DNA of 25,328 nucleotides from Candidatus Thorarchaeota archaeon (GTDB lineage Archaea > Asgardarchaeota > Thorarchaeia > Thorarchaeales > Thorarchaeaceae). The translations under genes and the position numbers were made by a program. The notes under the pieces are model-generated. The model did no database searches, had not been told where the DNA came from, and saw only the letters and a program-made list of their open reading frames with translations. Each line of letters opens with the position of its first letter. The first letter of the stretch is position 1. The stretch spans positions 1 to 25,328 of the forward strand of contig JBHLQM010000018.1 in assembly GCA_048884785.1 (NCBI GenBank). The letters are read 5' to 3'. This document shows, piece by piece, positions 3-21,603 of this stretch.

Positions 3-2300
3 ATTAGGCCAGCCGCTGAAGTAAGAACCAAAGCTAGTGATTGTCGAATTGCACCTGGTGGCACAACAGAGATTCCGCTGTCGATTCTTAGTTCCGCAGA
101 TTTCAGACTCACTGGGACTTTGCATGTTGAAAGTCCTACATCGAGTCTTGTTGTGAAACCAGAGGAAAGCAGAGTTAGCTTGCTAAAGGAGGGAATCTCA
201 GGAGTAGTTTTGAATATAAGAGCAAGTCCAGATTTGCCGCCTGTCACACATGATCTCTGGGTATACATGAAGCTTTCAGACCCGGATGGTGCTTCATTAA
301 CAACACGCAAATTTCGAGTTCCTGTTTTCTGCTTGGAAAATGGCAGCGTTGCTCTGGGAGAAGACGAGCGTTTGCGGAGAAAAACCATCGTTACAGCTCA
401 GTATCTTGCGACCTTTGATTATGAAGGCGCGATTCTCCGAGCATCAAATACAGCTGCATCTCTGGAGGGTTCCTATTTACTACGTTCTCAAGTTGGCCCT
501 CCCTTTGGAATTGACGCCTTTAGATTTACACCGCGTAATGTCGAGATAACTGAGGATCATGTTAGTAGAATTGTGACAATGAATGGAGTTCATCCAGAGC
601 GACCACTGTTCATAGAAGATAGAGCAATCTTCGAACAGGGCACGGGTGTCATTATCTATCAAGTATGGGTTACCAATACGGGAACTGAACCTCACGCTCT
701 ACAAGTGAGAGTTTTTGGAGCCGGAGGAGGAATCAGCATCAGTCCTGGGATAAAATACATCCCTCTGAAAAACGGAGTAGTCTATGGCAGATGCCAGAAT
801 TTGTCACTTGGCTATCCATCCTTCCCATCCAATCCTAATGATTTCGAAGAAGGATGGATTGCTCTTGAGGGCAATCTTACAGTCAAAGGCCAAGTCTGGG
901 ATAATAATACGGTTGAAGAGATTAGAATCGGTAATAATCAGCTCCTCTCTCTTAGCTATCCGAGTGTGAGCATCCTACCTGGAGAAAGAAGGCTCATGTC
1001 ACAAGTCTGGCTCATGATGAATGCTTCTAATTGGAGGGAAGTTAGGCAGCTTTGGCTCTCAAGAGTCGGAAAAAGATTTGCAACCGAATTTGAGAATGAA
1101 ACCCTGACAGCTCATCCATCAATTGATTTTGATATCAAGCCTGCAATAATTGCCTCTGCAAAAGATGTTGCAATAGAGGTGAGAGCTCGCAAAGGCATAG
1201 TGGCTCCTGTTCCAATTGATGTTGAGGTTCTTCCACCATCTGGATGGTCTGCTAGTCTTTCAACTTCAGCAAGTCCTTCTGAGAAACGAGAGCATTCAGC
1301 AAAGATAAAGCAGCATCCTGTGCAGGATGGTGAAAAGTTCTGGATAGGATTGTCACCAGGCAAGGTTGTCAGTGATGGGTTTGGCATTCATACTGGTTCT
1401 ATGAAACTTAGAATTAACACAGATATGACTGTCCCCATTGACATAATACAACTCGGTGATAAGGAAAATCAAGTCAGAGTGGATGAAATCGAAGATCAAG
1501 GATTGAAGGGCTACTCTGTTGACAATGGGCTTATTCAGTTCAGGGTTTCTCCTGAATATGGAGGTGTTCTATATTCTCTGAAGAACAAACATGGTACAGA
1601 GTTTCTCATGTCTACATTCCCTACTGCAGAGCAAAAACCTGGGAGTTTTCTTAACAACTATTATGGCGGAATCCAACCTGTTGTTTGGGATGAATCTATG
1701 GACGAAGTATTCACGAATGCCATCACAAACAAAGAAAAGATGGATGGCAAAATCGTCGAAATCGGACCATGGAAGGGAATTGAAATCTCTTGGACTGGGA
1801 AAAAGCAATTATCGACCAGAGGAGCAAAACTGAAACTTCAATACCTCACCGCCGCTGGGAGTCCGCTTCTCGTAGCTAGATGGATAATTCAAAACAAATC
1901 AGAAGCACCTTTGGAAGCAGTTCCTACATTACTTGTTGACGCAGCATTGAATGGCACCGTTCCCGAAGTAGTCTTCAGGGCGGAGGAGTATGGTGTTCAG
2001 ACCAACTATTACACCTCTCAAATACCTCCTGTTGTCATGGCCAACAACAATATCATCTGGATGCGTGAAACAGGTAAACGAAAACCTTCTGACGGTCTTG
2101 CTCTTGTCCATGAAGGCACTCTGGCAGGAGTTGTTGGTCTTGCATTTGCAGGAAATCTTGTTTGGGGAACATTTGGCAGAGAAGGGCCTCTCCCGCCAAA
2201 AGGGACAAGGACCACTACATCATGTTTTATGGTTGATCCCTCATCCGATGAAGAACTAAGGATACTCCAGAGGAATATTGAATTTCTGATTGAGAGATGA
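3..2300 (+). CDS. Large hypothetical protein, 5'-truncated by the window edge; beta-rich, with a C-terminal galactose-mutarotase-like/supersandwich region; resembles the C-terminal part of ~1000-aa GNAT-headed proteins
   Basis: The frame is open from position 3 (IRPAAEVRTKASDC...) through the track start at 120, so the true start lies upstream. The C-terminal segment YSVDNGLIQFRVSPEYGGVLYSL...FP...YYGG recalls this family from memory only. Ends with TGA TGA. Confidence 0.6.
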   Translation: MRPAAEVRTKASDCRIAPGGTTEIPLSILSSADFRLTGTLHVESPTSSLVVKPEESRVSLLKEGISGVVLNIRASPDLPPVTHDLWVYMKLSDPDGASLTTRKFRVPVFCLENGSVALGEDERLRRKTIVTAQYLATFDYEGAILRASNTAASLEGSYLLRSQVGPPFGIDAFRFTPRNVEITEDHVSRIVTMNGVHPERPLFIEDRAIFEQGTGVIIYQVWVTNTGTEPHALQVRVFGAGGGISISPGIKYIPLKNGVVYGRCQNLSLGYPSFPSNPNDFEEGWIALEGNLTVKGQVWDNNTVEEIRIGNNQLLSLSYPSVSILPGERRLMSQVWLMMNASNWREVRQLWLSRVGKRFATEFENETLTAHPSIDFDIKPAIIASAKDVAIEVRARKGIVAPVPIDVEVLPPSGWSASLSTSASPSEKREHSAKIKQHPVQDGEKFWIGLSPGKVVSDGFGIHTGSMKLRINTDMTVPIDIIQLGDKENQVRVDEIEDQGLKGYSVDNGLIQFRVSPEYGGVLYSLKNKHGTEFLMSTFPTAEQKPGSFLNNYYGGIQPVVWDESMDEVFTNAITNKEKMDGKIVEIGPWKGIEISWTGKKQLSTRGAKLKLQYLTAAGSPLLVARWIIQNKSEAPLEAVPTLLVDAALNGTVPEVVFRAEEYGVQTNYYTSQIPPVVMANNNIIWMRETGKRKPSDGLALVHEGTLAGVVGLAFAGNLVWGTFGREGPLPPKGTRTTTSCFMVDPSSDEELRILQRNIEFLIER

Positions 2301-5875: not shown

Positions 5876-7705
5876 ATGGTGAAAAGGGCGTTTTCATACT
5901 CTTTGGTTTTAAGTATCCTAGGAATTCTGCTCCTATGTTCAGTCGTTAGCGCTTTACCTGTACAATTCATTCAGAGTGAGGATGGAGGTGCATACCTAGA
6001 TAAAATAGTGTACAAGTCGATCGGACAAGAGGACCAGCAAATTCTGGATCTGATGGATAACGAGATTGATATAATTGGAGATATGATTTCCCCCTCCTTT
6101 TTTCAGCAATTGATGGAAGCATCAAATATCGAAGTAGCCAATCTTAGCAGAAATGGCTATGGGAAGATGACAATCAATTGTGCAAAATACCCATATAGTA
6201 TCACTGCATTTAGACGAGCTCTGGCCTTCGCTGTCGATAAAAGAGCCATATGCGATGACATATGGGGGGGATTTGCCAAGCCACTTGATTCACCCATTCC
6301 TGATGTTAATCCGTTCTCGATTGAAGGACAGCTTTCATACTCCTACTACGAGAGTAATATTGCCCTCGGAAACAGTCTCCTTGATGAAGCTGGTTTCTTG
6401 GATACTGATGCAGACGGCTACAGAAACTCCCCAGATGGCTCGTTTTTTGACGTTCTTATTGAGTGCGCTGATTCATCTAGTATTGCTATTGAAGTTGGGG
6501 CATATTTCGCCGATGCTCTCCGGGCTCTTAGTATCGATGCTGTGTCGCAACCCACAGATTTCTACGAATATCTAAATAGGGTATTCTTTCATGGTGATTA
6601 TGATATTGTGTTTCTTGGGAGAACTCAGTCCAATTTTGATGTTGATTGGCTTGCTGACGAATATTGGTCAGAGTATTGTGATGAACCGTACTACAACTTT
6701 CCAAACTGGTCTAATGCATCATTTGACAGCTATCGGGATACTCTATTGCATTCGGTAGCATATGATGAAGTCTATACTGCGGCTTCTGAGATGCAGAAGA
6801 TATGGATTTACGAGTGTCCTGAGATTATTGCCTATCAGAATATTCAGATGTCTGCCTATCGAAATGATAGGTTTGAAGGATTTACCAATGATGTTGTTGA
6901 AGGCGTTCCGGGTTGGTGGACAAACTTTCAGACACATTTGATCAATGAAGGTATTGGTATCCAGGGCGGAACTCTCCGGATAAGCACTCCAATAAATGTC
7001 GACTCTTTCAATTTCATGGCATTGGCATCTTTTTCGTTTTATGCTCAAAAGGTGAGCGACAATCTATGGGACAGTCTTCTCAGGAGATCTCCTACAGGGG
7101 AGGATCTACCATGGATAGCTGAGTCATATTCGGCAGAAGTAACTTCGGGCGGTGGGACCAGATTCACGTTCAATCTAGTTCAGAATGCAACATGGACGGA
7201 TGGCGTTCCAATCACTGGTGAAGATGTTGCATTCACATTGAATTACTATAAAGATGCCTCTGGAAATCCCTATGGCACTGATCTCTCAGAGATGACAGCG
7301 GCATATTCGCCTACAACCTATTTCGTGATTGTTGAATTCTCAAGTCAGTCTTTTTGGCACTTGCATACCTGTGGATACAAACCAATCATACCTAGACACA
7401 TCTTTCAGGAGATACCTCCTGATGAATGGTATACTTGGAATCCCCAACCTCCATCAGAGCCCATGGTTACTTCAGGTCCTTTTAATGTGACAAACTATGT
7501 TCTAGGTGAGTTTACTGAACTCAGCAGGAATTATGCCTATTTTCGTTCTGCGGATTCATCCTCTGAAAAGCCAACAGAGCCTTTTGAATTTCTCCTAAGC
7601 GTGAGTGGAATTATTACTATTGGCTCAGTTTTTGTCATAATAGTTGTTGCAGTGCTAATTCTGAGGTCCCGAACACCTCAGCAATCCGAATGGTCATATG
7701 GGTAG
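5876..7705 (+). CDS. ABC-type peptide/nickel solute-binding protein (family 5), circularly permuted, with signal peptide and C-terminal TM anchor
   Basis: N-terminal hydrophobic signal. Family-5 motifs FRRALAFAVDK, LLDEAGF.D.DADG, GGTLR, PWIAESY, ATWTDGVPITGEDVAFT and TSGPF. C-terminal TM followed by RSR. Confidence 0.88.
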   Translation: MVKRAFSYSLVLSILGILLLCSVVSALPVQFIQSEDGGAYLDKIVYKSIGQEDQQILDLMDNEIDIIGDMISPSFFQQLMEASNIEVANLSRNGYGKMTINCAKYPYSITAFRRALAFAVDKRAICDDIWGGFAKPLDSPIPDVNPFSIEGQLSYSYYESNIALGNSLLDEAGFLDTDADGYRNSPDGSFFDVLIECADSSSIAIEVGAYFADALRALSIDAVSQPTDFYEYLNRVFFHGDYDIVFLGRTQSNFDVDWLADEYWSEYCDEPYYNFPNWSNASFDSYRDTLLHSVAYDEVYTAASEMQKIWIYECPEIIAYQNIQMSAYRNDRFEGFTNDVVEGVPGWWTNFQTHLINEGIGIQGGTLRISTPINVDSFNFMALASFSFYAQKVSDNLWDSLLRRSPTGEDLPWIAESYSAEVTSGGGTRFTFNLVQNATWTDGVPITGEDVAFTLNYYKDASGNPYGTDLSEMTAAYSPTTYFVIVEFSSQSFWHLHTCGYKPIIPRHIFQEIPPDEWYTWNPQPPSEPMVTSGPFNVTNYVLGEFTELSRNYAYFRSADSSSEKPTEPFEFLLSVSGIITIGSVFVIIVVAVLILRSRTPQQSEWSYG

Positions 7706-7865
7706 GTGAGTCTGAATCTAGTTTGATGATTCAGCAAGAAAGATTATATCGACCTCAGTAGCGCGCATGAAGCTAATATACCTTGGATTACTTGGTCTTT
7801 ACATGGTGATTGCGTCTATCTCATCCTTCAGGAAAAAGCCAAAGAGAAACAACCAGGGTTGAGAA

Positions 7866-8372
7866 GTGTGTACTTTGAAAAAAGTCGTAAGAAAAATTGT
7901 CATCATTGGAGCTGGCGGATGCGGAAAGAGTTCAATCGCATCTAGGTTGGCCACAGGTGCCTTTGTTGACCATAAGATGACAATTGGTCTCGGAGTCGAT
8001 ACGTGGAAATCCATAGATGATGAAAATGAACTGGAGATACATGCATCGTTGTTTGATCTGGGTGGCCAGGAGCATTTTAGGTTCTTTCAAGAAGGATTTG
8101 TGACAGGGGCCCAAGTGCTACTGCTAATATTTGATGTTAACCGTTTCAAAACACTCTTTGACCTTGACGAGTGGATTCCTATTGTTGAGCAAATCCCACG
8201 GGACAGATGGATTCTTGTGGGAAACAAAATCGATCAGCCATCCTTTGTGACAGAAAATGATATCAAAGAGAAGGCTGAAAGTTGGGGCATCCCATATGTG
8301 ACTATTAGCGCAAAAACCGGTCAAAACTTTGAAAAACTAGTAAAAATGATTCTTGCAATCAAAACAGAATAG
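7866..8372 (+). CDS. Small GTPase, Rab/Ras-like (eukaryotic signature protein)
   Basis: G1 GAGGCGKS, G2 MTIG, G3 DLGGQ, G4 NKID, G5 SAK. No C-terminal Cys prenylation motif. The start may be GTG 7866 or TTG 7875. Confidence 0.92.
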   Translation: MCTLKKVVRKIVIIGAGGCGKSSIASRLATGAFVDHKMTIGLGVDTWKSIDDENELEIHASLFDLGGQEHFRFFQEGFVTGAQVLLLIFDVNRFKTLFDLDEWIPIVEQIPRDRWILVGNKIDQPSFVTENDIKEKAESWGIPYVTISAKTGQNFEKLVKMILAIKTE

Positions 8373-8438
8373 CCCTAAACATCAGGTCAGAGCAATAGGC
8401 TTCAGCTGAATCATTGTGATGCCTTCTAAATCATACAC

Positions 8439-8445
8439 TTTATAA
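8439..8445 (+). promoter_or_regulatory. Probable TATA box for the second solute-binding protein gene
   Basis: TTTATAA about 40 nt upstream of ATG 8483, followed by a G-rich SD-like AGGGGG. Confidence 0.45.
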
Positions 8446-8482
8446 CAACCTTTGAGCAAACAGTCGGAATAGGGGGCACACT

Positions 8483-10882
8483 ATGATGGCAAGGAGTATT
8501 CAGTTATTTATTTTCTGTACTCTAGTTCTTTCAGTCCTTTCTTTCAATGCTGCTATGCCTTGTGCTGAAGCAGCAGTATCTCAAGAAGGCGGTAGTCCGT
8601 TTCTAAACAAAGTCGTGTATAATGTCATAACACAAGACGACCAGCAAGTCCTTGCTCTACAAAACGATATGATTGATCTTATTGGTGATATGGTCGATCC
8701 GGCCTTTCTCCCTTCGCTTGCAGAAGCTGAGAATATTGAGGTGGCAAATGTATTAAGAAATGGGTACGGGTCGCTAATAATAAACTGTGAAAAGTACCCA
8801 TTGAATATAACGACATTCAGACGTGCGTTTGCTTTCGCTTTTGACAAGGAGGCTGTTTCTGATGACGTCTGGGATGGGCTATCTCAGCCAATAGACAGTT
8901 GTGTGCCAAGTATTAATCCATTCTCAATTGAGGGTCAGTTGCCTTACACCTATTATGAGGGAAATATTGCACTTGGCAACTATTTCCTAGACATTGCAGG
9001 TTTTTACGATGTGGATGAAGATGGTTTCAGAGAGGCTCCTGATGGATCTGATTTTGATGTTACCATAGAGTGCGCACAGTCATCCAATATTGCTATCCAA
9101 GTCGGAGCACTTGCCGCTGATGCATTGACTGCTCTAAATATTGATGCGACTTCAGTTCCAGCAGACTTCTACGAATATCTTAATCGGCTCTATTTTCATG
9201 GCAACTATGATGTTGTATTCCTCGGTTCATCGTTCAGTGATTTTGATGTTGACTGGCTTGCGTATGAGTTCTGGTCTGAGTATGCGGATGAACCATACTG
9301 GAACTTCCCCAACTTCAAGAATGCATCATACGACGCGTGGAGAGACCAGCTATTGCATTCAGTTGAGTATGATGATGTTTATGAGGCAGCTATCGTGATG
9401 CAGAAGATTTGGGTACATGCGTGTCCTATGGTCATATGCTACGAGAACATACTTCTATCAGCATATAGAACGGACAAGTTTGAAGGGTGGAAGAACGATG
9501 TTAATGGTGGAGTACCCGGATTCTGGACGAATATGATGGTCCACCTAAAAGCAGAACTAGGTGGACCGTATGGGGGAACTCTTCGATGGGGTAATCCTCT
9601 AGATATTGATACATTCAATTTCATGGCATCCTCGTCTGCATTTACCATGAACGTGCTGGAAATGCTTTATGATAGCTTGATTCGACAGGATTGGAACGGC
9701 GATGATATCATGTGGCTTGCCGAATCATATATGGCAGAGACCCACGATGACAACCCGAATGTACCTAATGGTTACACAAGGTTCACGTTCCAGATGATTC
9801 AGAATGCCACATGGACTGATGGAACTCCTCTCACTGCAGAAGATGTCGCATTCACATTGAACTACTATAGCGATGCACCTGGTAATCCCTACGGTACCGA
9901 CCTCACCCAGATGACAGCAGCTTATGCATCATCTAACTACACTGTTGTCATAGAATTTAGTACCGAGTCATTTTGGCATCTTCATACCGTTAGCTATAAG
10001 CCAATTATCCCAAAGCACATTTTCGAGGATATTGGCCTTGATCAATGGAACCTCTGGAACCCCAATCCACCCGCTGAGGAAATGGTCACCTCTGGTCCGT
10101 TCATTGTATCTGACTACGAACCTGGTGAGTTCACTGAACTAACTCGCAATCCGAACTACTTTATTGATAGAGATGTCGTATTGAACGCACCAGATATTGC
10201 TCCAGTCGATGATTTCACCATGAATGAAGGAACATCAGCTGATATTGCTTGGAATATCACTGACGATAATCCGGACCGATACGAGATACTCCATAATGGG
10301 GATTTTATTAGAGGTGGAGCAATCAATTCGACTGAAGAAGTAATTCGAATACAGCTAGAGAGCTATGGAATTGGCATTCATGAATTCACCCTAACAGCGT
10401 ACGACAAAAGCGGATTGACATCAGAAGATTCAGTTATAGTCATCATTTTGGACACAACCTCACCTGTGTTGAATCATCCACCTGACATATCATATGCAGT
10501 TGGAGACACTGGAAATAACATCACGTGGACACCAGCGGATAGAAACCCAACAATATTCATGATTATTCGGAATGATGAGGTAATACGTCAAGGCTATTGG
10601 GAGGAAGGAGACGAGATTGCTGTCAATGTGGATGGGCTCTCCGAAGGTATGTATAACTATACAATTGTTGTCTTTGATGCTGGTGTGAATTTTGCTTTTG
10701 ATTCTGTGTATGTTAATGTTGCAAATACCACTCCAACAACCCCCATTTTTGGTGAGAATATTTTGTCAATAATCTCAATCTCCATTACCATTGGCTCTAT
10801 AGGCGTGATTGTGATTGTTGTCACGCTAGTAGTTCGGTCTAGACGTAGTGAGGCCTTACAAACGCAGTGGACATTCAGTTAG
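8483..10882 (+). CDS. ABC-type solute-binding protein (family 5), circularly permuted, with two Ig-like stalk repeats and C-terminal TM anchor; paralog of 5876-7705
   Basis: Long near-identical blocks shared with 5876-7705 (NPFSIEGQL.Y.YYE.NIALGN, DFYEYLNR..FHG.YD, QNATWTDG, GNPYGTDL, SFWHLHT..YKPIIP.HIF, MVTSGPF). Two ~90-aa repeats precede the TM. Confidence 0.9.
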   Translation: MMARSIQLFIFCTLVLSVLSFNAAMPCAEAAVSQEGGSPFLNKVVYNVITQDDQQVLALQNDMIDLIGDMVDPAFLPSLAEAENIEVANVLRNGYGSLIINCEKYPLNITTFRRAFAFAFDKEAVSDDVWDGLSQPIDSCVPSINPFSIEGQLPYTYYEGNIALGNYFLDIAGFYDVDEDGFREAPDGSDFDVTIECAQSSNIAIQVGALAADALTALNIDATSVPADFYEYLNRLYFHGNYDVVFLGSSFSDFDVDWLAYEFWSEYADEPYWNFPNFKNASYDAWRDQLLHSVEYDDVYEAAIVMQKIWVHACPMVICYENILLSAYRTDKFEGWKNDVNGGVPGFWTNMMVHLKAELGGPYGGTLRWGNPLDIDTFNFMASSSAFTMNVLEMLYDSLIRQDWNGDDIMWLAESYMAETHDDNPNVPNGYTRFTFQMIQNATWTDGTPLTAEDVAFTLNYYSDAPGNPYGTDLTQMTAAYASSNYTVVIEFSTESFWHLHTVSYKPIIPKHIFEDIGLDQWNLWNPNPPAEEMVTSGPFIVSDYEPGEFTELTRNPNYFIDRDVVLNAPDIAPVDDFTMNEGTSADIAWNITDDNPDRYEILHNGDFIRGGAINSTEEVIRIQLESYGIGIHEFTLTAYDKSGLTSEDSVIVIILDTTSPVLNHPPDISYAVGDTGNNITWTPADRNPTIFMIIRNDEVIRQGYWEEGDEIAVNVDGLSEGMYNYTIVVFDAGVNFAFDSVYVNVANTTPTTPIFGENILSIISISITIGSIGVIVIVVTLVVRSRRSEALQTQWTFS
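10186..10728 (+). repeat. Two tandem ~90-aa Ig-like (beta-sandwich) protein repeats
   Basis: AP.I....D....EG....I.W...D.NP..Y.I..N...I..G ... G.HEFTL..YD..G....DSV.V.I.DTT aligns with SP.L....D....G......I.W...D.NP..F.I.RN...I..G ... G.YNYTI..FD........DSV.V.V.NTT. Boundaries are approximate. Confidence 0.75.
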
Positions 10883-11052
10883 CTGAAAAATGGTCAAATC
10901 GGCATCTCTATAGCTTAGATTGTATGCCGCAATAATGCTGGCATGTTCATGGATGTGATCAATACAGTTGATGGTGTCTGATGCAGCAAAGGTATTCATT
11001 ACGCCAAGCTTAAGTGCAAAAAGGGATGATTGAACCTTCAGAGGTCTCTAGA

Positions 11053-12942
11053 ATGAGAATGCTACAGATTCACAGTGATGGCTTTGCCTTTGAAGCCAAG
11101 AGGAAAGCACTGAAGAGTGCGGAAAAGGTTGATTCCAAAAGCTACTCTACCAAGGAGTCATGTTTAGTCAATTTCATCGCCGCCGAGACCTCCGATACAA
11201 CAAATATCACTAAAGCTGCGAAAATTACTGCTGATATGATCGCTGCAGCTGCTGATGAAGTGAAAGAGAAGAAAATCATTGTCTATCCATGGGTTCACCT
11301 TAGTGAAACGCCCTCTCCTCCTGGGGAAGCTTTGAAGCTCCTCAAGATAATAGAGAAGGATTTGAAGGAGAAGGGGTATGATGTTCTTCGAATTCCCTTT
11401 GGCTGGTATAAATCGTTCATGATAAATTGCAAGGGACATCCATTGGCAGAAAGATCCAAGGTTCTTGATGTGACCAAGGTTTCTGAAGACATTCACGGCG
11501 AGATTACCATCGGAGAAGACCTTACTGCCATTAAGGCAGAGTCAGAAGCGAGTTCAAAGTTCTACATCTTTGAACCTGATGGCAAGATATCTGAGGTGGG
11601 CAAGTTTGACTATACCGGATACGAAGATCTCAGGCTCTATGTAGCATATGAAACCGCAAAAGATAGAACTGCACAAGAGGCACCGCCTCATATTGAGATG
11701 ATGAAGAATCTTGAGCTCGTGGACTACGAACCAGGTTCTGATGCAGGTAATTTCAGGTGGCCGCCCAGAGGGCTGACTCTCAAAAAGGCGATTGAAGAAC
11801 GTGTAACCGCAGAGATGGTGGAATATGGTGCCAACGTAGTGCAGACCCCGCTTATCTACGATTATGAGCATCCTTCCCTGAAATCATATCTTCAGAGGTT
11901 TCCATCTCGTCAATATGTGGTGCGTTCTGGTGACAGTGACTACTTTGCAAGATTCTCTGCATGTTTTGGTCAATTCTTGCTTATCTCACAGGCAACTGTT
12001 TCTCACAAGCAACTGCCCTTGAAGCTGTTTGAGATTGCTCCTAGCTATAGAAGAGAACAGAGCGGAGAGCTGGCGGGAATGCGAAGACCCAGGGCATTCA
12101 CTATGCCAGATATCCACGAGTTTGTTGCAGATGTTGAGATGGCGAAGGATTCCGTGAACAATCAGATGGTCTTTGTAGAGAAGCTGATGAATGAGCTTGA
12201 AGTAAACTATGAGGTTTCATTCAGGATTCTCAGAGAGTTCTATGAGGAAAACAAGGAATTCGTCCAAGGAGTAGTGAAGAAGGTCGGCAAGCCCCTTATG
12301 ATTGAACTTTTCGAAGAGCGATATGCATACTTTATCTTCAAAGGTGAATGGAATGTTGTTGACGAACAGAAGAAAGCTGCATGTCTGGCAACTATCCAGA
12401 TTGACGTCGAGAATGCTGAGAGATTCGACATCAAGTATGTTGGAGATGATGGCAAGACAAAACGGCCGCTTATTCTACACACCTCACCATCCGGCTCGAT
12501 TGAAAGAGTTCTCTATGGTGTCCTGGAACAAGCCAATAAAGACAAGAAGAATGGAATTAAGCCCATGCTTCCTCTATGGATGACGCCAGTCCAGCTAAGA
12601 CTATTGCCTGTGGATGAAAGTCTGGTTGAATACGCAATCAAGCTAGGAAAAGAATTGGAAGCGGCAGGAATACGCTACGAGGTCGATGATCGCTCGATGA
12701 CTCTAGGAAAAAAGATACGGTCAGCTGAGAAACTCTGGATTCCGTACATCTGCGTTATTGGAGAGAAGGAGAGGGATTCAAAGATACTGTCTGTACGTAT
12801 TAGGAGAGAGGAGGAGCAGGCTTCAATGTCCATCAAGGAATTAATTGGTGAAATCTCTGAAAAAACGTCATTTGCACCGAAGCAGAGGTTGCTTTTGCCC
12901 TCCCTAATCTCTCAACAGCCAATCTTCTCGAGAGAGGTATGA
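11053..12942 (+). CDS. thrS: Threonine--tRNA ligase, archaeal type with N-terminal editing domain
   Basis: Editing domain MRMLQIHSD, YPWVHLS, PFGWYKSF.I.CKGHPLAE.S. Catalytic core DAGNFRW, RFSACFGQF, YRREQSGE, FTMPDIH, QIDVENAERFDI, LHTSPSGSIER. C-terminal anticodon-binding domain. ATG 11053 is preceded by SD GAGGT, so it is preferred over GTG 11014. Confidence 0.97.
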   Translation: MRMLQIHSDGFAFEAKRKALKSAEKVDSKSYSTKESCLVNFIAAETSDTTNITKAAKITADMIAAAADEVKEKKIIVYPWVHLSETPSPPGEALKLLKIIEKDLKEKGYDVLRIPFGWYKSFMINCKGHPLAERSKVLDVTKVSEDIHGEITIGEDLTAIKAESEASSKFYIFEPDGKISEVGKFDYTGYEDLRLYVAYETAKDRTAQEAPPHIEMMKNLELVDYEPGSDAGNFRWPPRGLTLKKAIEERVTAEMVEYGANVVQTPLIYDYEHPSLKSYLQRFPSRQYVVRSGDSDYFARFSACFGQFLLISQATVSHKQLPLKLFEIAPSYRREQSGELAGMRRPRAFTMPDIHEFVADVEMAKDSVNNQMVFVEKLMNELEVNYEVSFRILREFYEENKEFVQGVVKKVGKPLMIELFEERYAYFIFKGEWNVVDEQKKAACLATIQIDVENAERFDIKYVGDDGKTKRPLILHTSPSGSIERVLYGVLEQANKDKKNGIKPMLPLWMTPVQLRLLPVDESLVEYAIKLGKELEAAGIRYEVDDRSMTLGKKIRSAEKLWIPYICVIGEKERDSKILSVRIRREEEQASMSIKELIGEISEKTSFAPKQRLLLPSLISQQPIFSREV

Positions 12943-16188: not shown

Positions 16189-17961
16189 TTAAATGAGCGG
16201 AATGCTTGATATCGAAACCCAGGCCCAAATAAATGCGCAGATGATTATAGCTGGCCATGGATTCTGTATCTCCTGGGATGCCCATGCGATAAGTACAGTT
16301 GATAATGCTGAAACGATAAAGAAGAGCATGAGCAACAAACCAAGCAGTACCATTGAACCTGCTATGAATCCAAATATTGTAGTCACAGCAACAACAACAA
16401 CAGACAAGAAGCCTGCAACACCATGTCTCGCACCTATCGCGAACACAATGTTTTTGGAAAACGTATTTCCGTTCCATTCCCGATTGTCTATCAGCAAACC
16501 TCGAATCCAAGCAGTTTCTGCGACATAGTAGGGTATCGCAAAAACCATGATGACTATCGTATTCGTTATACGAATGCCAACAGGGTATCGTACCATCGAG
16601 AAAACAATCCATGGTTCCATTGCATCAGGAAGTCCTCCAATACCCATCCATCCGATTAGCCAGAAGATTACAATCAGTGCAGGAATAAGTCCTCGAAGGA
16701 ATTCTTTCATGTATTCAGCCAAAGATTGTATTCTTATTCCGGCGGCGTCAAACGCATAGTATGTTTGTCTTCTTCCCAAACCGATTCTAAGAATCACAAT
16801 CGTTGATATTGTAAAGAATATGAAGAAAAGGACAAGCCCTGTAGCGAACATAGAGTTTGGCCAATAGATACGAGCATTTTCCAAGTGAAACGTGATTGAA
16901 GATGTGGCTGTGAAAATGAGGACAAATGCAGTACCCAAAAAGGTGCTGAGAATTAACGACTTCTTAATGCTTTGAGGTTCAGTTTTGGTGAGATATGGTG
17001 CAGGCTTGATCTTCTTTGGTAGTTTCTCGTTAATGATAAAAAGTAATGGAATTGTCGAAACCAATAGCGCAAAGACGCCACTTGCCATGGCAAAAACCTT
17101 GTACATGAAAACCTGACTAGACACATCCAAGGTTTGTTCAAGCTGGCCTTCTCCCTGAAGCGCTTGGATCATCCAGCTGCAGCTCTCAGATACAATAGTG
17201 CCATCAATCGCCTCAAAGACATGGTCTGTTGGTGCAAGCGCAAGCCGGTATGCGGTTTCATTTTCAAATGAACCATATGTTGTATCAGGCTGGAAGTCTT
17301 CTATGCCCGATGCCTGTACTAGGGTATCAATACCATCTTCAGCAGAAATCATCTCATCGAATTCGCCTAGTGCAACCATGAAGTTGCCTGGTAGATGGGA
17401 TATGGTTCCGAGACCCATGTCTGCGACTGCGCCAACAGCGACGTATGCATGAGGTGCGTTTGTGAAATTTTGCATCTGGACTGCAACTTGAAATCCAAGT
17501 GAATGTGTCAAAACACCGTAGAGTGAATCATCAACTTCTGGTCGTTGCTGTACAAATTCAACTGCCGCGTAAATGTCAAGTGCCATGTTGTAGAAGTCTG
17601 TTATATTGAATGACAGCATTGAATCTCCATGACCCGGCAAGTCAACAGAAACGACAGTGAAATTCCTTCTTGCAAGTTCAATATTAAATGAATACATGCC
17701 TTCCTTGGATCCAGCTACTCCATGTGTTGTCAGGACCACTGGCATTGGTGATTCATACCTTGAATATCTGGGTTCGTATATCATGAAGTTGATTGGTCTA
17801 CCTGGCTCTCTTTCAATAGTATGGCGTTCCAGTATCAGCTCACCAAGACCTCTATCTGTTGACCATGAAAGGTAAAGCGAAGATGCAATGATAATAGAGA
17901 GTATTAACAATGTGAAGTAAAGGGAGCTTTTGGCCAATGTAGTGTCTCCGAATTGTGTCAC
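16189..17961 (-). CDS. Membrane-bound alpha/beta-hydrolase: N-terminal anchor, hydrolase domain, and about 8 C-terminal TM helices
   Basis: HGVAG oxyanion region, DLPGHGDS, nucleophile elbow THSLG, GEFDE (acid), TDHVFE (His). The C-terminal half is strongly hydrophobic. Confidence 0.8.
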   Translation of the reverse strand: MTQFGDTTLAKSSLYFTLLILSIIIASSLYLSWSTDRGLGELILERHTIEREPGRPINFMIYEPRYSRYESPMPVVLTTHGVAGSKEGMYSFNIELARRNFTVVSVDLPGHGDSMLSFNITDFYNMALDIYAAVEFVQQRPEVDDSLYGVLTHSLGFQVAVQMQNFTNAPHAYVAVGAVADMGLGTISHLPGNFMVALGEFDEMISAEDGIDTLVQASGIEDFQPDTTYGSFENETAYRLALAPTDHVFEAIDGTIVSESCSWMIQALQGEGQLEQTLDVSSQVFMYKVFAMASGVFALLVSTIPLLFIINEKLPKKIKPAPYLTKTEPQSIKKSLILSTFLGTAFVLIFTATSSITFHLENARIYWPNSMFATGLVLFFIFFTISTIVILRIGLGRRQTYYAFDAAGIRIQSLAEYMKEFLRGLIPALIVIFWLIGWMGIGGLPDAMEPWIVFSMVRYPVGIRITNTIVIMVFAIPYYVAETAWIRGLLIDNREWNGNTFSKNIVFAIGARHGVAGFLSVVVVAVTTIFGFIAGSMVLLGLLLMLFFIVSALSTVLIAWASQEIQNPWPAIIICAFIWAWVSISSIPLI

Positions 17962-18031: not shown

Positions 18032-19126
18032 TCAATCCAATAGAGAACCAACGTCAACAGACATTAGAAATGTGTTATATTCTGTGAATATGCTCATAAT
18101 AAAGTAAGTTGTTTCTCCACTATTCTCAACATAATCAGGATGAACGAATGAACCATACAGCGATGGATATTCCTCTGCATCCACAATGGTGAAAGGTTCG
18201 CTCCAAGGGCCCCATAGATACTCAGATGATCGTACAACTATTGAATATGCCACATTATCTGTGTAGAAGGCCGTCCATTTATCCAAGTATTCATTCCACA
18301 TCAATGATACTTCTCCAACCGGTGCGCTAAAAACCTGAGAGGAATCCTCCGGGTCCGAGCTCCAAATTGGGTCTCCCATGGTTGTCATTCCCGTATAATA
18401 TTGATAGGCAGATTGGTTTAGTATCTGCATCTTTTCTACTCGACTGAGATAACAAGCTCCGAATCTTCCCGCGGGTGTAGAGAGAAGATATAGAAAACTA
18501 GAGTCCATAGAGGTTGGCTGCGCAACTCCAAATAGGACAAAGTTACTGTTTCCGGCCCAGGATATATTCGTCATCTTTGTGAATGACTGCCCGTTATTAG
18601 TAGAAACTGCTATTGATGCATTGTTGCATGTCCAGATGCCTCCTATCTCTGACCAGTGGCGCACTGACATATAATACACATACAGATTCCCAAATAGAGA
18701 AACTGCGGCAGTTGGTATGCAAGTCATCTCAATATTGTCGACCTTCAAACTAGAAATCAGTTCTTTGGCGTATCCAGAAGTCGGATTGAGGACCCACGAA
18801 TCAACAGAAATCCCATCCGATGGATCAGTATCCTCACTTATTGCAATTGTATTTGACCTCCAGTTGCCAGTCATGCTAGGAGAAGAGAAAGTATCTCCAA
18901 AAATGAAGAGGTATTGCCCATCGTGTTTGACAATGATTCCAAGGTCAGTTCCTCCCACATCATAGACTGTTGAATCTGATATTGCTTCAGACCCTGTCAG
19001 TTGTGCAACCAATTGATGTGGCAGATTCTGGTTGTCTTCTGGATTAAAGAAAGGCCATGCCAACCATGCCATAAGAATGACTATCACAATGAAGCAAATA
19101 CCATAACGCCTTCTCTTCGGTGGCAT
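18032..19126 (-). CDS. DUF4185-domain protein (GH183-like beta-propeller) with N-terminal membrane anchor/signal
   Basis: GGTDLGI, FIFGDTF, WRSN, IPT, YYMSV..W, VGEVSL.WN.YL.KW, GPWS, LYG.F.HP. ATG 19126 follows SD GGGGGT; the track start is TTG 19132. Confidence 0.82.
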   Translation of the reverse strand: MPPKRRRYGICFIVIVILMAWLAWPFFNPEDNQNLPHQLVAQLTGSEAISDSTVYDVGGTDLGIIVKHDGQYLFIFGDTFSSPSMTGNWRSNTIAISEDTDPSDGISVDSWVLNPTSGYAKELISSLKVDNIEMTCIPTAAVSLFGNLYVYYMSVRHWSEIGGIWTCNNASIAVSTNNGQSFTKMTNISWAGNSNFVLFGVAQPTSMDSSFLYLLSTPAGRFGACYLSRVEKMQILNQSAYQYYTGMTTMGDPIWSSDPEDSSQVFSAPVGEVSLMWNEYLDKWTAFYTDNVAYSIVVRSSEYLWGPWSEPFTIVDAEEYPSLYGSFVHPDYVENSGETTYFIMSIFTEYNTFLMSVDVGSLLD

Positions 19127-19183
19127 GTTCAACCCCCATCGGTAACTCTGAATCCCACCCTTATTTTCTTTTGTTGATTGGCT

Positions 19184-19439: not shown

Positions 19440-21467
19440 TCACCCCATCGTATAATTTGAGCCATTTGGATATTGAGGCACCTGTCCAACTCCTCGTAAT
19501 GTTTCAGATCGTCTGTCAATTATAACCGCAATGCCAATTGTGACAGCAATCAATGAAATTGCCCCTCCAACTACTGCGATCTCAACCAGAGGTGATAGTG
19601 CAGTTACATCACTCGTGAGCTTGTACATGTGAAAGAAGTAGGTGTTTCTCATAGGATTGAAAACATAGCCATAGAGTTTCGAGATTTGGACATGGAAGTT
19701 TGTTTCTTGATAGCAATAGATGTATGCTGAATGTTGAACCAAGGTTTCTTGGATTTCATAGTATATCTCCTCTCTGCTTAATGAGTCCAGAGTGGATATT
19801 GCCTCTTGGACAAGCTCATCTATTACCTCAGAATTCCATCCATCAGATTCTGACAATCCTATTCTTTCATCCCAAACACTTGAGCTATGGGTGAAATGTC
19901 TAGCAAAGTCATCAGGATCTGCAATACTCGGTGTCCATCCTGTGAAGAATATCGGCAATCGATTATCCATGTAGTACTGATTGTAATTTGACCATTCAAT
20001 TCCCTGAATTGAAATGACTAAAGGTTCTGAAGGCTGCATTGCTCCATATAGTTCATTGGAAAGCATTTCAGAAATACCATCTCTCAAGAGCAGACTCAAA
20101 ACTTCACCAAAAGGAGGTCCCCAGGTTATATAATAGAACACTAGCTCATAGTTCATACTTGCCAACACATTGTCAAGCCATCCTCCCTCCATTGCCTGAT
20201 TCCAGGCAGACGCCGCTTTGGTTAAGTTGAATGAGAATGTAAATAATTCCGCAGCATAACCAAGCATACCTTGTGGAATCAAGCCTCTTTGCTGAACGCC
20301 AAACCCGTGAACAGAATTTGAGATAAGTTGACTGTAATTCAATGCATACGAAAAGCACTCTCTAACACTCCTATTTGCGAATGGATTCAGAATAATCCCC
20401 ACTGTTCCGTTGATGAGGGGATGCATATTGAAAGCCGCAAATCTCACTCTGTAGATCGGCTCTCCGCACCAAAGGCTGATGTCTGGATTGCTTGATTTTA
20501 CAGAGCCATCCAGACTTTCTCCAGTGAGACCGTTGTAAATCCGATCAGATTGACTAGTTGGCCAATAGCATCCGTCTGTTTGACCTTCCTCGAGATGGAT
20601 AATTCGTAGAGCCTCATCTTCCTCAGTAAGGATTATGACATCCTCAATCGCTCCTGAATATGGGAAATATACCTTTGAGGAAGCACTCCGCCAATAGTTC
20701 TCAAATCTATGCAGATGGATCGCATCATCACGTATCCAGAAATCGACAGTATAGGGGCCTGTTCCACAGGTATGTGCTTCAATCCAGCTATTATGAATTC
20801 CAATCTCAATCCCACCATTGGCTTCAATGTAAGATGGGCTGATAATAGCTGAAACCGGGCTAGCTAGAACTTTCATGAATGGCGCATATGGAAATGCAAG
20901 CTGGATTCTGATAGTGTAGTCGTCCAATACAAGAATTGGATTCTTTTCCATCCAGTTCTCATAGGCACCTATATGCTCCGCACTTCCAGATCCAAATACT
21001 TCAACCGCATTTGCAACTACATCCCCTCCAAGAATCGATTCTGCCAGTAACCAGGCTGGTCCGTATTCATTGAATATTGCCAAAACCCTCTCTAGGTTGT
21101 ATTTTACACAGGAAGCGTTGAGCGGAGTGCCATCATGAAATGTGATTCCTTCCCTCAGGGTAATTGTATAGTTCAATTGATTTGAAGAGATATGGGCGGA
21201 TTCTGCGAGGAGAGGTATCGGTGTGTCTGTGTCTTTGGAAACCCAGTCATAGGTAAAGAGAGTTTCATAGACATTGGTACATATCCAATTGGCAAAGTCA
21301 TCATTTGCAATGTGGGGATCTAGAACCTCAGGATTTCCTACTGTTTCCCAAAAAACAGTTTGCCCCCATGGTGGAGGGGGCATATAGGCCATTGCGTAGC
21401 AATATGGCGAAGGAAATATCATCAATATGCACAGAAATACAAGCTGGCTCTTTGCCATGGATTTCAT
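19440..21467 (-). CDS. ABC-type peptide/nickel solute-binding protein (family 5), canonical motif order, C-terminal TM anchor
   Basis: P.VLDPH, VYETL, PLLAES, LREGITFHDGTPLNA, GTGPY, RFENYW, PFAN.SVR..FSYA, GW.P..ADPDDF and REEIY.EIQ occur in normal DppA order. ATG 21467 follows GAGG; the track start is TTG 21473. Confidence 0.9.
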   Translation of the reverse strand: MKSMAKSQLVFLCILMIFPSPYCYAMAYMPPPPWGQTVFWETVGNPEVLDPHIANDDFANWICTNVYETLFTYDWVSKDTDTPIPLLAESAHISSNQLNYTITLREGITFHDGTPLNASCVKYNLERVLAIFNEYGPAWLLAESILGGDVVANAVEVFGSGSAEHIGAYENWMEKNPILVLDDYTIRIQLAFPYAPFMKVLASPVSAIISPSYIEANGGIEIGIHNSWIEAHTCGTGPYTVDFWIRDDAIHLHRFENYWRSASSKVYFPYSGAIEDVIILTEEDEALRIIHLEEGQTDGCYWPTSQSDRIYNGLTGESLDGSVKSSNPDISLWCGEPIYRVRFAAFNMHPLINGTVGIILNPFANRSVRECFSYALNYSQLISNSVHGFGVQQRGLIPQGMLGYAAELFTFSFNLTKAASAWNQAMEGGWLDNVLASMNYELVFYYITWGPPFGEVLSLLLRDGISEMLSNELYGAMQPSEPLVISIQGIEWSNYNQYYMDNRLPIFFTGWTPSIADPDDFARHFTHSSSVWDERIGLSESDGWNSEVIDELVQEAISTLDSLSREEIYYEIQETLVQHSAYIYCYQETNFHVQISKLYGYVFNPMRNTYFFHMYKLTSDVTALSPLVEIAVVGGAISLIAVTIGIAVIIDRRSETLRGVGQVPQYPNGSNYTMG

Positions 21468-21603
21468 GCCCAATCCTCGATTCCATTTCTGATTTCCACG
21501 ATTATGTTACTCCTTGGTGCGAATAGATAAATGCCTTTTCAAGTCTCAGAAATATATGTTCGTATGCACACTTTAAAATAATAGTTTGATAATGAGATTC
21601 TTT

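Follow-up and report, generated by a model that had tools for sequence, protein, structure and literature searches.

Circularly permuted family-5 solute-binding proteins in a Thorarchaeota genome and in other Asgard archaea

The two genes described here lie at 5876-7705 and 8483-10882 of a 25,328-nucleotide stretch of DNA (hereafter the window) from Candidatus Thorarchaeota archaeon (assembly GCA_048884785.1, contig JBHLQM010000018.1, positions 1 to 25,328), and encode solute-binding proteins (SBPs) of family 5 (Pfam SBP_bac_5, PF00496). An earlier note, made from the window sequence, had claimed that both are circular permutants of the canonical fold. The window was assigned to an archaeon by a ThrRS gene with an archaea-specific editing domain at 11014-12942, and near-identical database proteins carry Thorarchaeota (Asgard) names.

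The first gene (5876-7705, plus strand) is an open reading frame (ORF) of 609 codons for P0001, identified by its Pfam SBP_bac_5 match and modelled with AlphaFold2 (AF2). A signal peptide was predicted at residues 1-27 (5876-5956, plus strand) from a hydrophobic core and a VSA-LP site read in the sequence, with a hydropathy segment at residues 2-35. Half A (5981-6955, plus strand), delimited by the envelope of a half-A hidden Markov model (HMM) and by VIA-align, corresponds to the canonical C-terminal ~60% of the chain (second part of domain I, domain III and the return to domain I). Half B (6959-7555, plus strand), delimited by a half-B HMM envelope, VIA-align and a separate AF2 model, covers what in canonical proteins are the N-terminal ~200 residues (from strand 1 of domain I through domain II to NPNYF). 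The junction of the old C-terminus with the old N-terminus (residues 357-365, ..EGIGIQGG; 6944-6970, plus strand) was placed by alignment consensus, and a C-terminal transmembrane (TM) anchor at residues 569-602 (7580-7681, plus strand; hydropathy scan, predicted helix 582-598) follows half B after a linker of ~10-20 residues.

The second gene (8483-10882, plus strand; ORF with Pfam SBP_bac_5 match) encodes P0002, of 799 residues, in which half A (8588-9562) and half B (9566-10174, both plus strand) were delimited by HMM envelopes and phmmer. Between binding module and anchor, two repeats of ~90 residues (10190-10744, plus strand) appear to be immunoglobulin (Ig)-like (PKD-like), as read from weak, sub-threshold Pfam matches (K319L-like_PKD, ChitinaseA_N, TcfC E-set); longer P0002 homologues bear a precomputed PF22352 annotation. 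The anchor was placed at residues 755-788 (10745-10846, plus strand) by hydropathy scan, and by hydropathy P0001 and P0002 each have an N-terminal hydrophobic signal-type segment and a single C-terminal TM segment. A canonical-order family-5 SBP in the same window (P0003, 677 residues; 19440-21473, minus strand), with a signal peptide and a C-terminal anchor (TM 623-655, hydropathy), was used as an internal control.

Motif order was compared with that of the control. All motifs that the earlier note had listed for 5876-7705 and 8483-10882 are present there, including GGTLR at 6965-6979 and 9572-9586 (residues 364-368 in P0001 and in P0002), as is the canonical motif order in P0003. The permuted proteins keep the hallmark motifs W.DG.P.TA.DV, GPF...NPNYF and FRRA..A.DK. 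At the junction, the family consensus is HLKxxxGGPFGGT, with G365 invariant (alignment A1).

Against SBP_bac_5, P0001 and P0002 scored 164.8 and 175.2 bits (cut-off 32.4), each in two swapped stretches, the outcome that the earlier note had expected of this check; in both, the best stretch placed residues 37-266 on profile positions 144-363 of 368. The family match is significant for both window genes, and its stretches do not follow the N-to-C order of the PF00496 profile. P0003 gave a single collinear stretch (residues 85-532 on profile 2-365). In both window genes, a six-frame search of the genome with SBP_bac_5 placed the match to profile 143-364 upstream of that to profile 4-142. Searches of PDB chains with phmmer (E-values 1e-19 to 1e-51, far beyond chance) placed P0002 residues 108-352 on 267-519 and residues 430-590 on 64-220 of chain 7ebm, and P0002 residues 360-564 on 16-212 of 1xoc (AppA).

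Direct comparison with the canonical copy in the window, as the earlier note had proposed, succeeded in part: by BLASTP, the sole alignable part was the N-terminal block of P0003, which falls at P0002 residues 362-459 (E 1e-4), and the second block did not align. P0003 is too distant from P0002 for a dot-plot, and canonical-order Asgard relatives are the better reference. Four such references (half B then half A; loci L015, L017, L018 and L020, from other Asgard families) were used. With hhalign, the profile of the permuted proteins in native order matched these relatives in two segments (columns 2-336 on 307-651, E 2e-46; columns 340-527 on 62-278, E 3e-17), and the same profile rotated in silico gave one collinear match of 500 columns (E 1e-62).

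Rotation thus restores a single collinear alignment, and the segments cover the reference once, in swapped order and without duplication, as in a natural circular permutant. Pfam, phmmer against the PDB and hhalign all gave two partial matches in swapped order, which bears out the natural permutation that had been proposed; a single collinear full-length alignment, which had been named as the finding that would speak against it, was not seen for the native order and was obtained with the rotated profile alone. In the products of the genes at 5876-7705 and 8483-10882, the family-5 / cluster C SBP fold is, almost certainly, genuinely circularly permuted. Each chain consists of the canonical C-terminal ~325 residues followed by the canonical N-terminal ~200, cut after NPNYF, with the old termini joined by a conserved GGPxGGT linker. 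Canonical Asgard relatives carry an insertion of 20-30 residues in the NPxYF-GPYVK loop, exactly where the permuted chains start and end, and the permutation site is therefore a permissive surface loop.

In a 3.6 Mb draft genome of 158 contigs with 5.4% contamination, an unusual order of the halves could also stem from assembly, gene calling or the fusion of two gene fragments. P0001 and P0002 share 60% identity over 566 residues, so a single error of assembly or gene calling does not account for the order. Family-5 SBPs in the genome comprise 14 permuted and 4 canonical copies, and all 14 permuted copies run from half A to half B. The ORFs are uninterrupted, and their products bear a signal peptide at the N-terminus and an anchor at the C-terminus that the permutation created. 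The same order was met in ~100 genomes belonging to several Asgard families, and in independent protein records numbering in the hundreds. This recurrence in independent assemblies refutes an artefact, the probability of which we regard as negligible.

The distribution of the permuted form was surveyed in databases and in genomes of the phylum. A homologue search returned 447 proteins, the best 120 of which were all strong full-length matches, and an exhaustive search of representatives returned 247 clusters (50% identity) at E<1e-30, of which the best 150 were nearly all single collinear matches across the junction. Among 286 homologues retrieved and ordered, 264 were A-B and 0 were B-A, the remainder being fragments or multi-module proteins. 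Across 300 genomes of the phylum (E<=1e-25), the permuted form was found in ~100 overall, including 70 of the 76 genomes of the window's own family; collinear matches were also found in four other families (f2, 1/1; f12, 18/19; f22, 10/21; f13, 1/3). Two large families had no match at E<=1e-25 with the window query (f9, 0/68; f5, 0/28). Source names outside Thorarchaeota were Hodarchaeota, Heimdallarchaeota, Kariarchaeaceae, Hermodarchaeota and Promethearchaeota, and the strong matches there were all A-B. Weak bacterial matches (Chloroflexi, Actinomycetota, Thermomicrobiales) were B-A, and the permuted form never occurred under a non-Asgard name within the databases searched. Within the searches made, the permuted form is restricted to Asgard archaea (Thor-, Hod-, Heimdall- and Hermod-type) and comprises hundreds of proteins; the suggestion of a lineage-specific receptor family thus holds at the level of Asgard archaea.

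Whether the two halves form one fold was addressed with structure models. The AF2 model of P0001, computed from a 32-sequence alignment, had a mean predicted local distance difference test score (pLDDT) of 80 and a predicted template-modelling score (pTM) of 0.76 over 609 residues. Since Foldseek and VIA-align work sequentially and can pair no more than one half of a full permuted model, half B of P0001 was also folded alone (23-sequence alignment; pLDDT 87.8). With Foldseek, the full model gave TM-scores of ~0.42-0.5 across ~300 columns. With VIA-align, residues 34-357 of the full model were superposed on 1xoc 207-520 (Z 28.5, root-mean-square deviation (rmsd) 3.7, 313 aligned), 1dpp 206-507 (Z 27.6), 4oet 182-494 (Z 26.5) and 1vr5 213-557 (Z 27.4), and residues 2-197 of the half-B model on 1xoc 20-210 (Z 19.3, rmsd 2.0), 4oet 4-185 (Z 19.4) and 1vr5 25-215 (Z 17.4). 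The two halves together tile each solved chain once, with a breakpoint consistent within ~3 residues, and the proposed new termini in the loop after NPNYF agree with the breakpoints of both profile and structure.

The models suggest that the halves of P0001 assemble into one Venus-flytrap fold: the pTM of 0.76 exceeds the 325/609 = 0.53 obtainable from a single rigid half, so the halves should be packed in one unit. Counting against this, confidence is low at the junction (pLDDT 66-76) and at residues 374-386. The halves might instead be separate domains, or parts of a domain-swapped dimer or oligomer, and PDB 8qlh is a domain-swapped dimer of a family-5 SBP. With the whole-chain pTM as given, a short and conserved junction linker, and a canonical chain that the halves tile with no overlap or gap, we consider such an arrangement very unlikely.

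Every part of the three-domain fold of canonical cluster C / PF00496 proteins (Bacillus subtilis AppA, 1xoc; Escherichia coli DppA, 1dpp/8z1z; Campylobacter jejuni NikZ, 4oet; Thermotoga maritima TM1223, 1vr5; Vibrio harveyi chitin SBP, 7ebm) also occurs once in the permuted proteins. As in canonical PF00496 SBPs, the hallmark motifs are kept and some paralogues lie beside OppBCDF-type genes, but no collinear alignment between the two forms is possible. In DppA numbering, the permuted chain starts near residue 206, ends near residue 205 and has the old termini fused. Domain I of DppA we take to comprise residues 1-33, 183-262 and 479-507; by these boundaries, a cut at about 205/206 would fall inside domain I, which would leave the two hinge crossings untouched, and opening and closing on an oligomeric ligand (peptide or oligosaccharide) should therefore persist. 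The chain runs from the signal peptide into the domain I strand that normally follows NPNYW/F, through domain III to the normal C-terminus, and then through the GGPxGG linker into the normal first strand, domain II and NPNYF, beyond which come a linker and a single TM helix.

The closest relatives by sequence are the canonical-order Asgard SBPs (L015, L017, L018, L020; half A 129-152 bits), which share the design of signal peptide plus C-terminal TM anchor and near-identical motifs, and differ in their B-then-A order. These canonical relatives are C-terminally anchored too, so the attachment point of the anchor, which in canonical proteins is the end of the chain, has moved to the post-NPNYF loop. 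The tether may thereby come to lie on another face of the protein, as the earlier note had proposed. In sequence and in component parts the permuted proteins belong to the PF00496 / cluster C superfamily, of which they form a topological variant.

The sole natural permuted SBP found in the literature searched was TpMglB-2 (Tp0684) of Treponema pallidum, a circularly permuted glucose-binding protein placed in 'cluster Bc' (PMC4990184). Like the window proteins, it is a naturally permuted binding protein of an ATP-binding cassette (ABC) transporter, and both occur mainly in organisms with tethered binding proteins. TpMglB-2 differs in being a two-domain type I / cluster B protein in which ~3 strands of one lobe have changed place, at the cost of a fourth hinge crossing, whereas in the window proteins ~60% of a cluster C chain has moved and, by mapping on the DppA domain boundaries, the hinge count would be unchanged. 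All sequence and structure matches of the window proteins are to cluster C, and none places them in cluster B (MglB-like). No relevant account of a permuted family-5 / OppA-type SBP, or of an Asgard permuted protein, was found in the literature searched.

The role of the permuted proteins was assessed from gene context. A paralogue of the window genes, P0014 (C6:15947-17827; 73% identical to P0002 and grouped with it in the tree with support 97), lies directly downstream of genes for OppC-like (525 residues), OppB-like (354 residues) and OppC-like (534 residues) permeases, which are adjoined by divergent genes for OppD/OppF-type ATPases with an oligo_HPY domain. Of 11 orthologous loci in other Thorarchaeota genomes of several genera, 8 show the same order of permease then SBP, and a Hod-type genome (G215) has a permuted SBP together with OppB-like, OppC-like, OppD and OppF genes. 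The remaining three Opp-type permease pairs of the genome adjoin canonical SBPs. By phmmer against the PDB, the closest solved relatives of the window proteins are chito-/manno-oligosaccharide binders, followed by peptide binders.

Several features of the P0014 locus were recorded. The permease genes before P0014 (L001:5185-9822 = G000:C6:11184-15821) include two OppC copies that share 77% identity and are longer than usual, at 525 and 534 residues. Between their OppC_N helix and BPD_transp_1 core, ~280 residues are unassigned; beside canonical SBPs, OppC frames have 296-449 residues. Directly downstream of P0014 lies a gene for a 292-residue membrane protein (L001:11959-12837, plus strand) with a weak presenilin-like Pfam match (E 2.9e-5, below cut-off), and tblastn placed a presenilin-like gene in the same downstream position in 8 orthologous loci (among L003-L011), which are all 8 of the syntenic ones.

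From sequence, context and homology, the window proteins are predicted to be exported, C-terminally anchored, permuted cluster C (Opp/Dpp/Nik-class) receptors of an Opp-type ABC importer, with a probability of about 0.7. Taken by itself, the statement that these two proteins act as receptors of an ABC importer is somewhat less secure, and we hold it to be fairly probable. In bacteria, several SBPs are known to share one translocator, as with OppA1-5 of Borrelia and DppA1-5 of Pseudomonas (PMC5736914, PMC12728205), and the 13 orphan paralogues, both window genes among them, probably bring other ligands to the P0014-type translocator. Weighing against this prediction, no ABC permease or ATPase gene was found on the window contig (C18); 13 of the 14 permuted copies, including both window genes, are orphans with no transporter genes on their contigs; and the family includes fusions to Ig-like repeats, TSP3 repeats and cytoplasmic zinc ribbons and extensions to ~2000 residues, which are more adhesin- or sensor-like.

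These same observations would fit a fold that is permuted as described, but in which the orphan copies serve as adhesins or ligand sensors at the cell surface or form an abundant glycoprotein coat, and only the operon-linked paralogue serves transport. The Ig-like repeats of P0002 point in that direction, as do two-module proteins, relatives with the module at the N-terminus of proteins of 1000-4300 residues, with TSP3 repeats or with a cytoplasmic zinc ribbon behind the anchor, and the N-X-S/T sequons of the window proteins (5 in P0001, 9 in P0002). As context, the cultured Asgard archaeon P. syntrophicum has a family-5 SBP, whether permuted or canonical, that exceeds all its other surface proteins by a wide margin in abundance and is the most N-glycosylated of them, while an S-layer protein was not detected there (PMC11284389). 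Set against this are the close relation of P0002 to operon-linked P0014, because of which any functional divergence of P0002 would be recent, the high sequence conservation of both lobes in the alignment, and the frequency of translocator-sharing orphan SBPs in bacteria. We therefore consider an adhesive, sensory or coat role of the orphans unlikely, and prefer the reading of the window proteins as importer receptors.

Other architectures of the permuted module were found among the homologues. In P0370 and P0373 (668 residues, Hodarchaeota-type), the permuted module is followed by a TM anchor and a cytoplasmic C-terminal zinc ribbon (Zn_Ribbon_1 / Zn_ribbon_3), an arrangement reminiscent of a single-pass receptor. 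The giant proteins P0124 (4308 residues), P0126/P0129 (~2580 residues), P0131 (2427 residues) and P0212 (6240 residues) have 1-2 permuted modules, usually N-terminal, and then extensions of great length; in P0131, two A-B modules follow one another.

The origin of the permuted form was examined in a tree that combined 15 canonical sequences with 56 permuted ones, the latter rotated for alignment. Canonical Asgard relatives adjoin or nest within the permuted assemblage, at weakly supported nodes, and constraining the permuted rows to stay together gave a tree that surpassed the free quick-search tree by 15.9 in log-likelihood (p-value of the approximately unbiased test, p-AU, 0.69). The tree is compatible with a single origin of the post-NPNYF cut within Asgard SBPs. 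A second cut point occurs in P0269 (945 residues, a metagenomic representative), in which a signal peptide is followed by the last third of the fold, the fused termini and the first two thirds (Pfam, residues 259-609 on profile 1-305), and then by bacterial TSP3 repeats and a TM anchor. This Asgard variant shares its family, signal peptide and C-terminal anchor with the window genes; its cut lies at about profile position 305, inside domain III, and that of the window genes at about position 142/143.

On another contig of the genome, a tandem pair of permuted SBP genes (G000:C11:1238-5110, minus strand) encodes proteins that are ~81% identical; such a recent head-to-tail duplication is an arrangement from which new permutations can arise.

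A broader and speculative interpretation, to which we give rather low odds, is that the Asgard family-5 fold has behaved as a sequence ring that was re-cut at at least two positions (post-NPNYF and in domain III), with tandem genes and two-module proteins as raw material. The product might be a general-purpose surface receptor, used on Opp-type importers, in giant adhesin-like proteins and in zinc-ribbon-tailed TM proteins, and drifting from transport to sensing and adhesion.

Large multi-domain proteins are rarely found circularly permuted in nature, and where they are, a full family for comparison is seldom at hand. Here, hundreds of permuted proteins, close canonical-order relatives and a second cut-point variant within one phylum amount to a natural experiment in rewiring, in which the tolerance of a Venus-flytrap receptor for new termini and a displaced tether can be studied. 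A permutation in family-5 SBPs is apparently undescribed in the literature searched, and, to judge from operon-linked permuted copies with conserved synteny, the fold has most likely kept its part in nutrient delivery. For biosensor design, the cut site and linker found in nature indicate permissive positions. At present the proteins are annotated as ordinary 'ABC transporter substrate-binding protein'; with domain tools they fall apart into two partial matches, and orthology calls based on length or order will mis-handle them. Asgard archaea are the closest archaeal relatives of eukaryotes; as the permuted form is the dominant family-5 SBP in this genome, the Asgard cell surface and nutrient uptake may rely on it.

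Between the two permuted SBP genes lies a gene for a Ras-family small GTPase (7866-8372, plus strand; Pfam Ras, 3.9e-27). It was considered as a part of the SBP system and dropped, as its orthologues in relatives lie mostly away from permuted SBPs; among the best orthologues, only the one on G005:C31 has a permuted SBP within ~2 kb. Elsewhere in the window, a 726-residue ORF at 120-2300 (plus strand) matched no Pfam family at E<=0.001. Downstream of the orphan canonical SBP gene (19440-21473, minus strand) lie genes for a DUF4185 protein (18032-19132) and a 590-residue alpha/beta-hydrolase (16189-17961), both also on the minus strand. The DUF4185 family includes mycobacterial arabinan-degrading glycosidases, and the three genes together hint at an oligosaccharide-related surface cluster.

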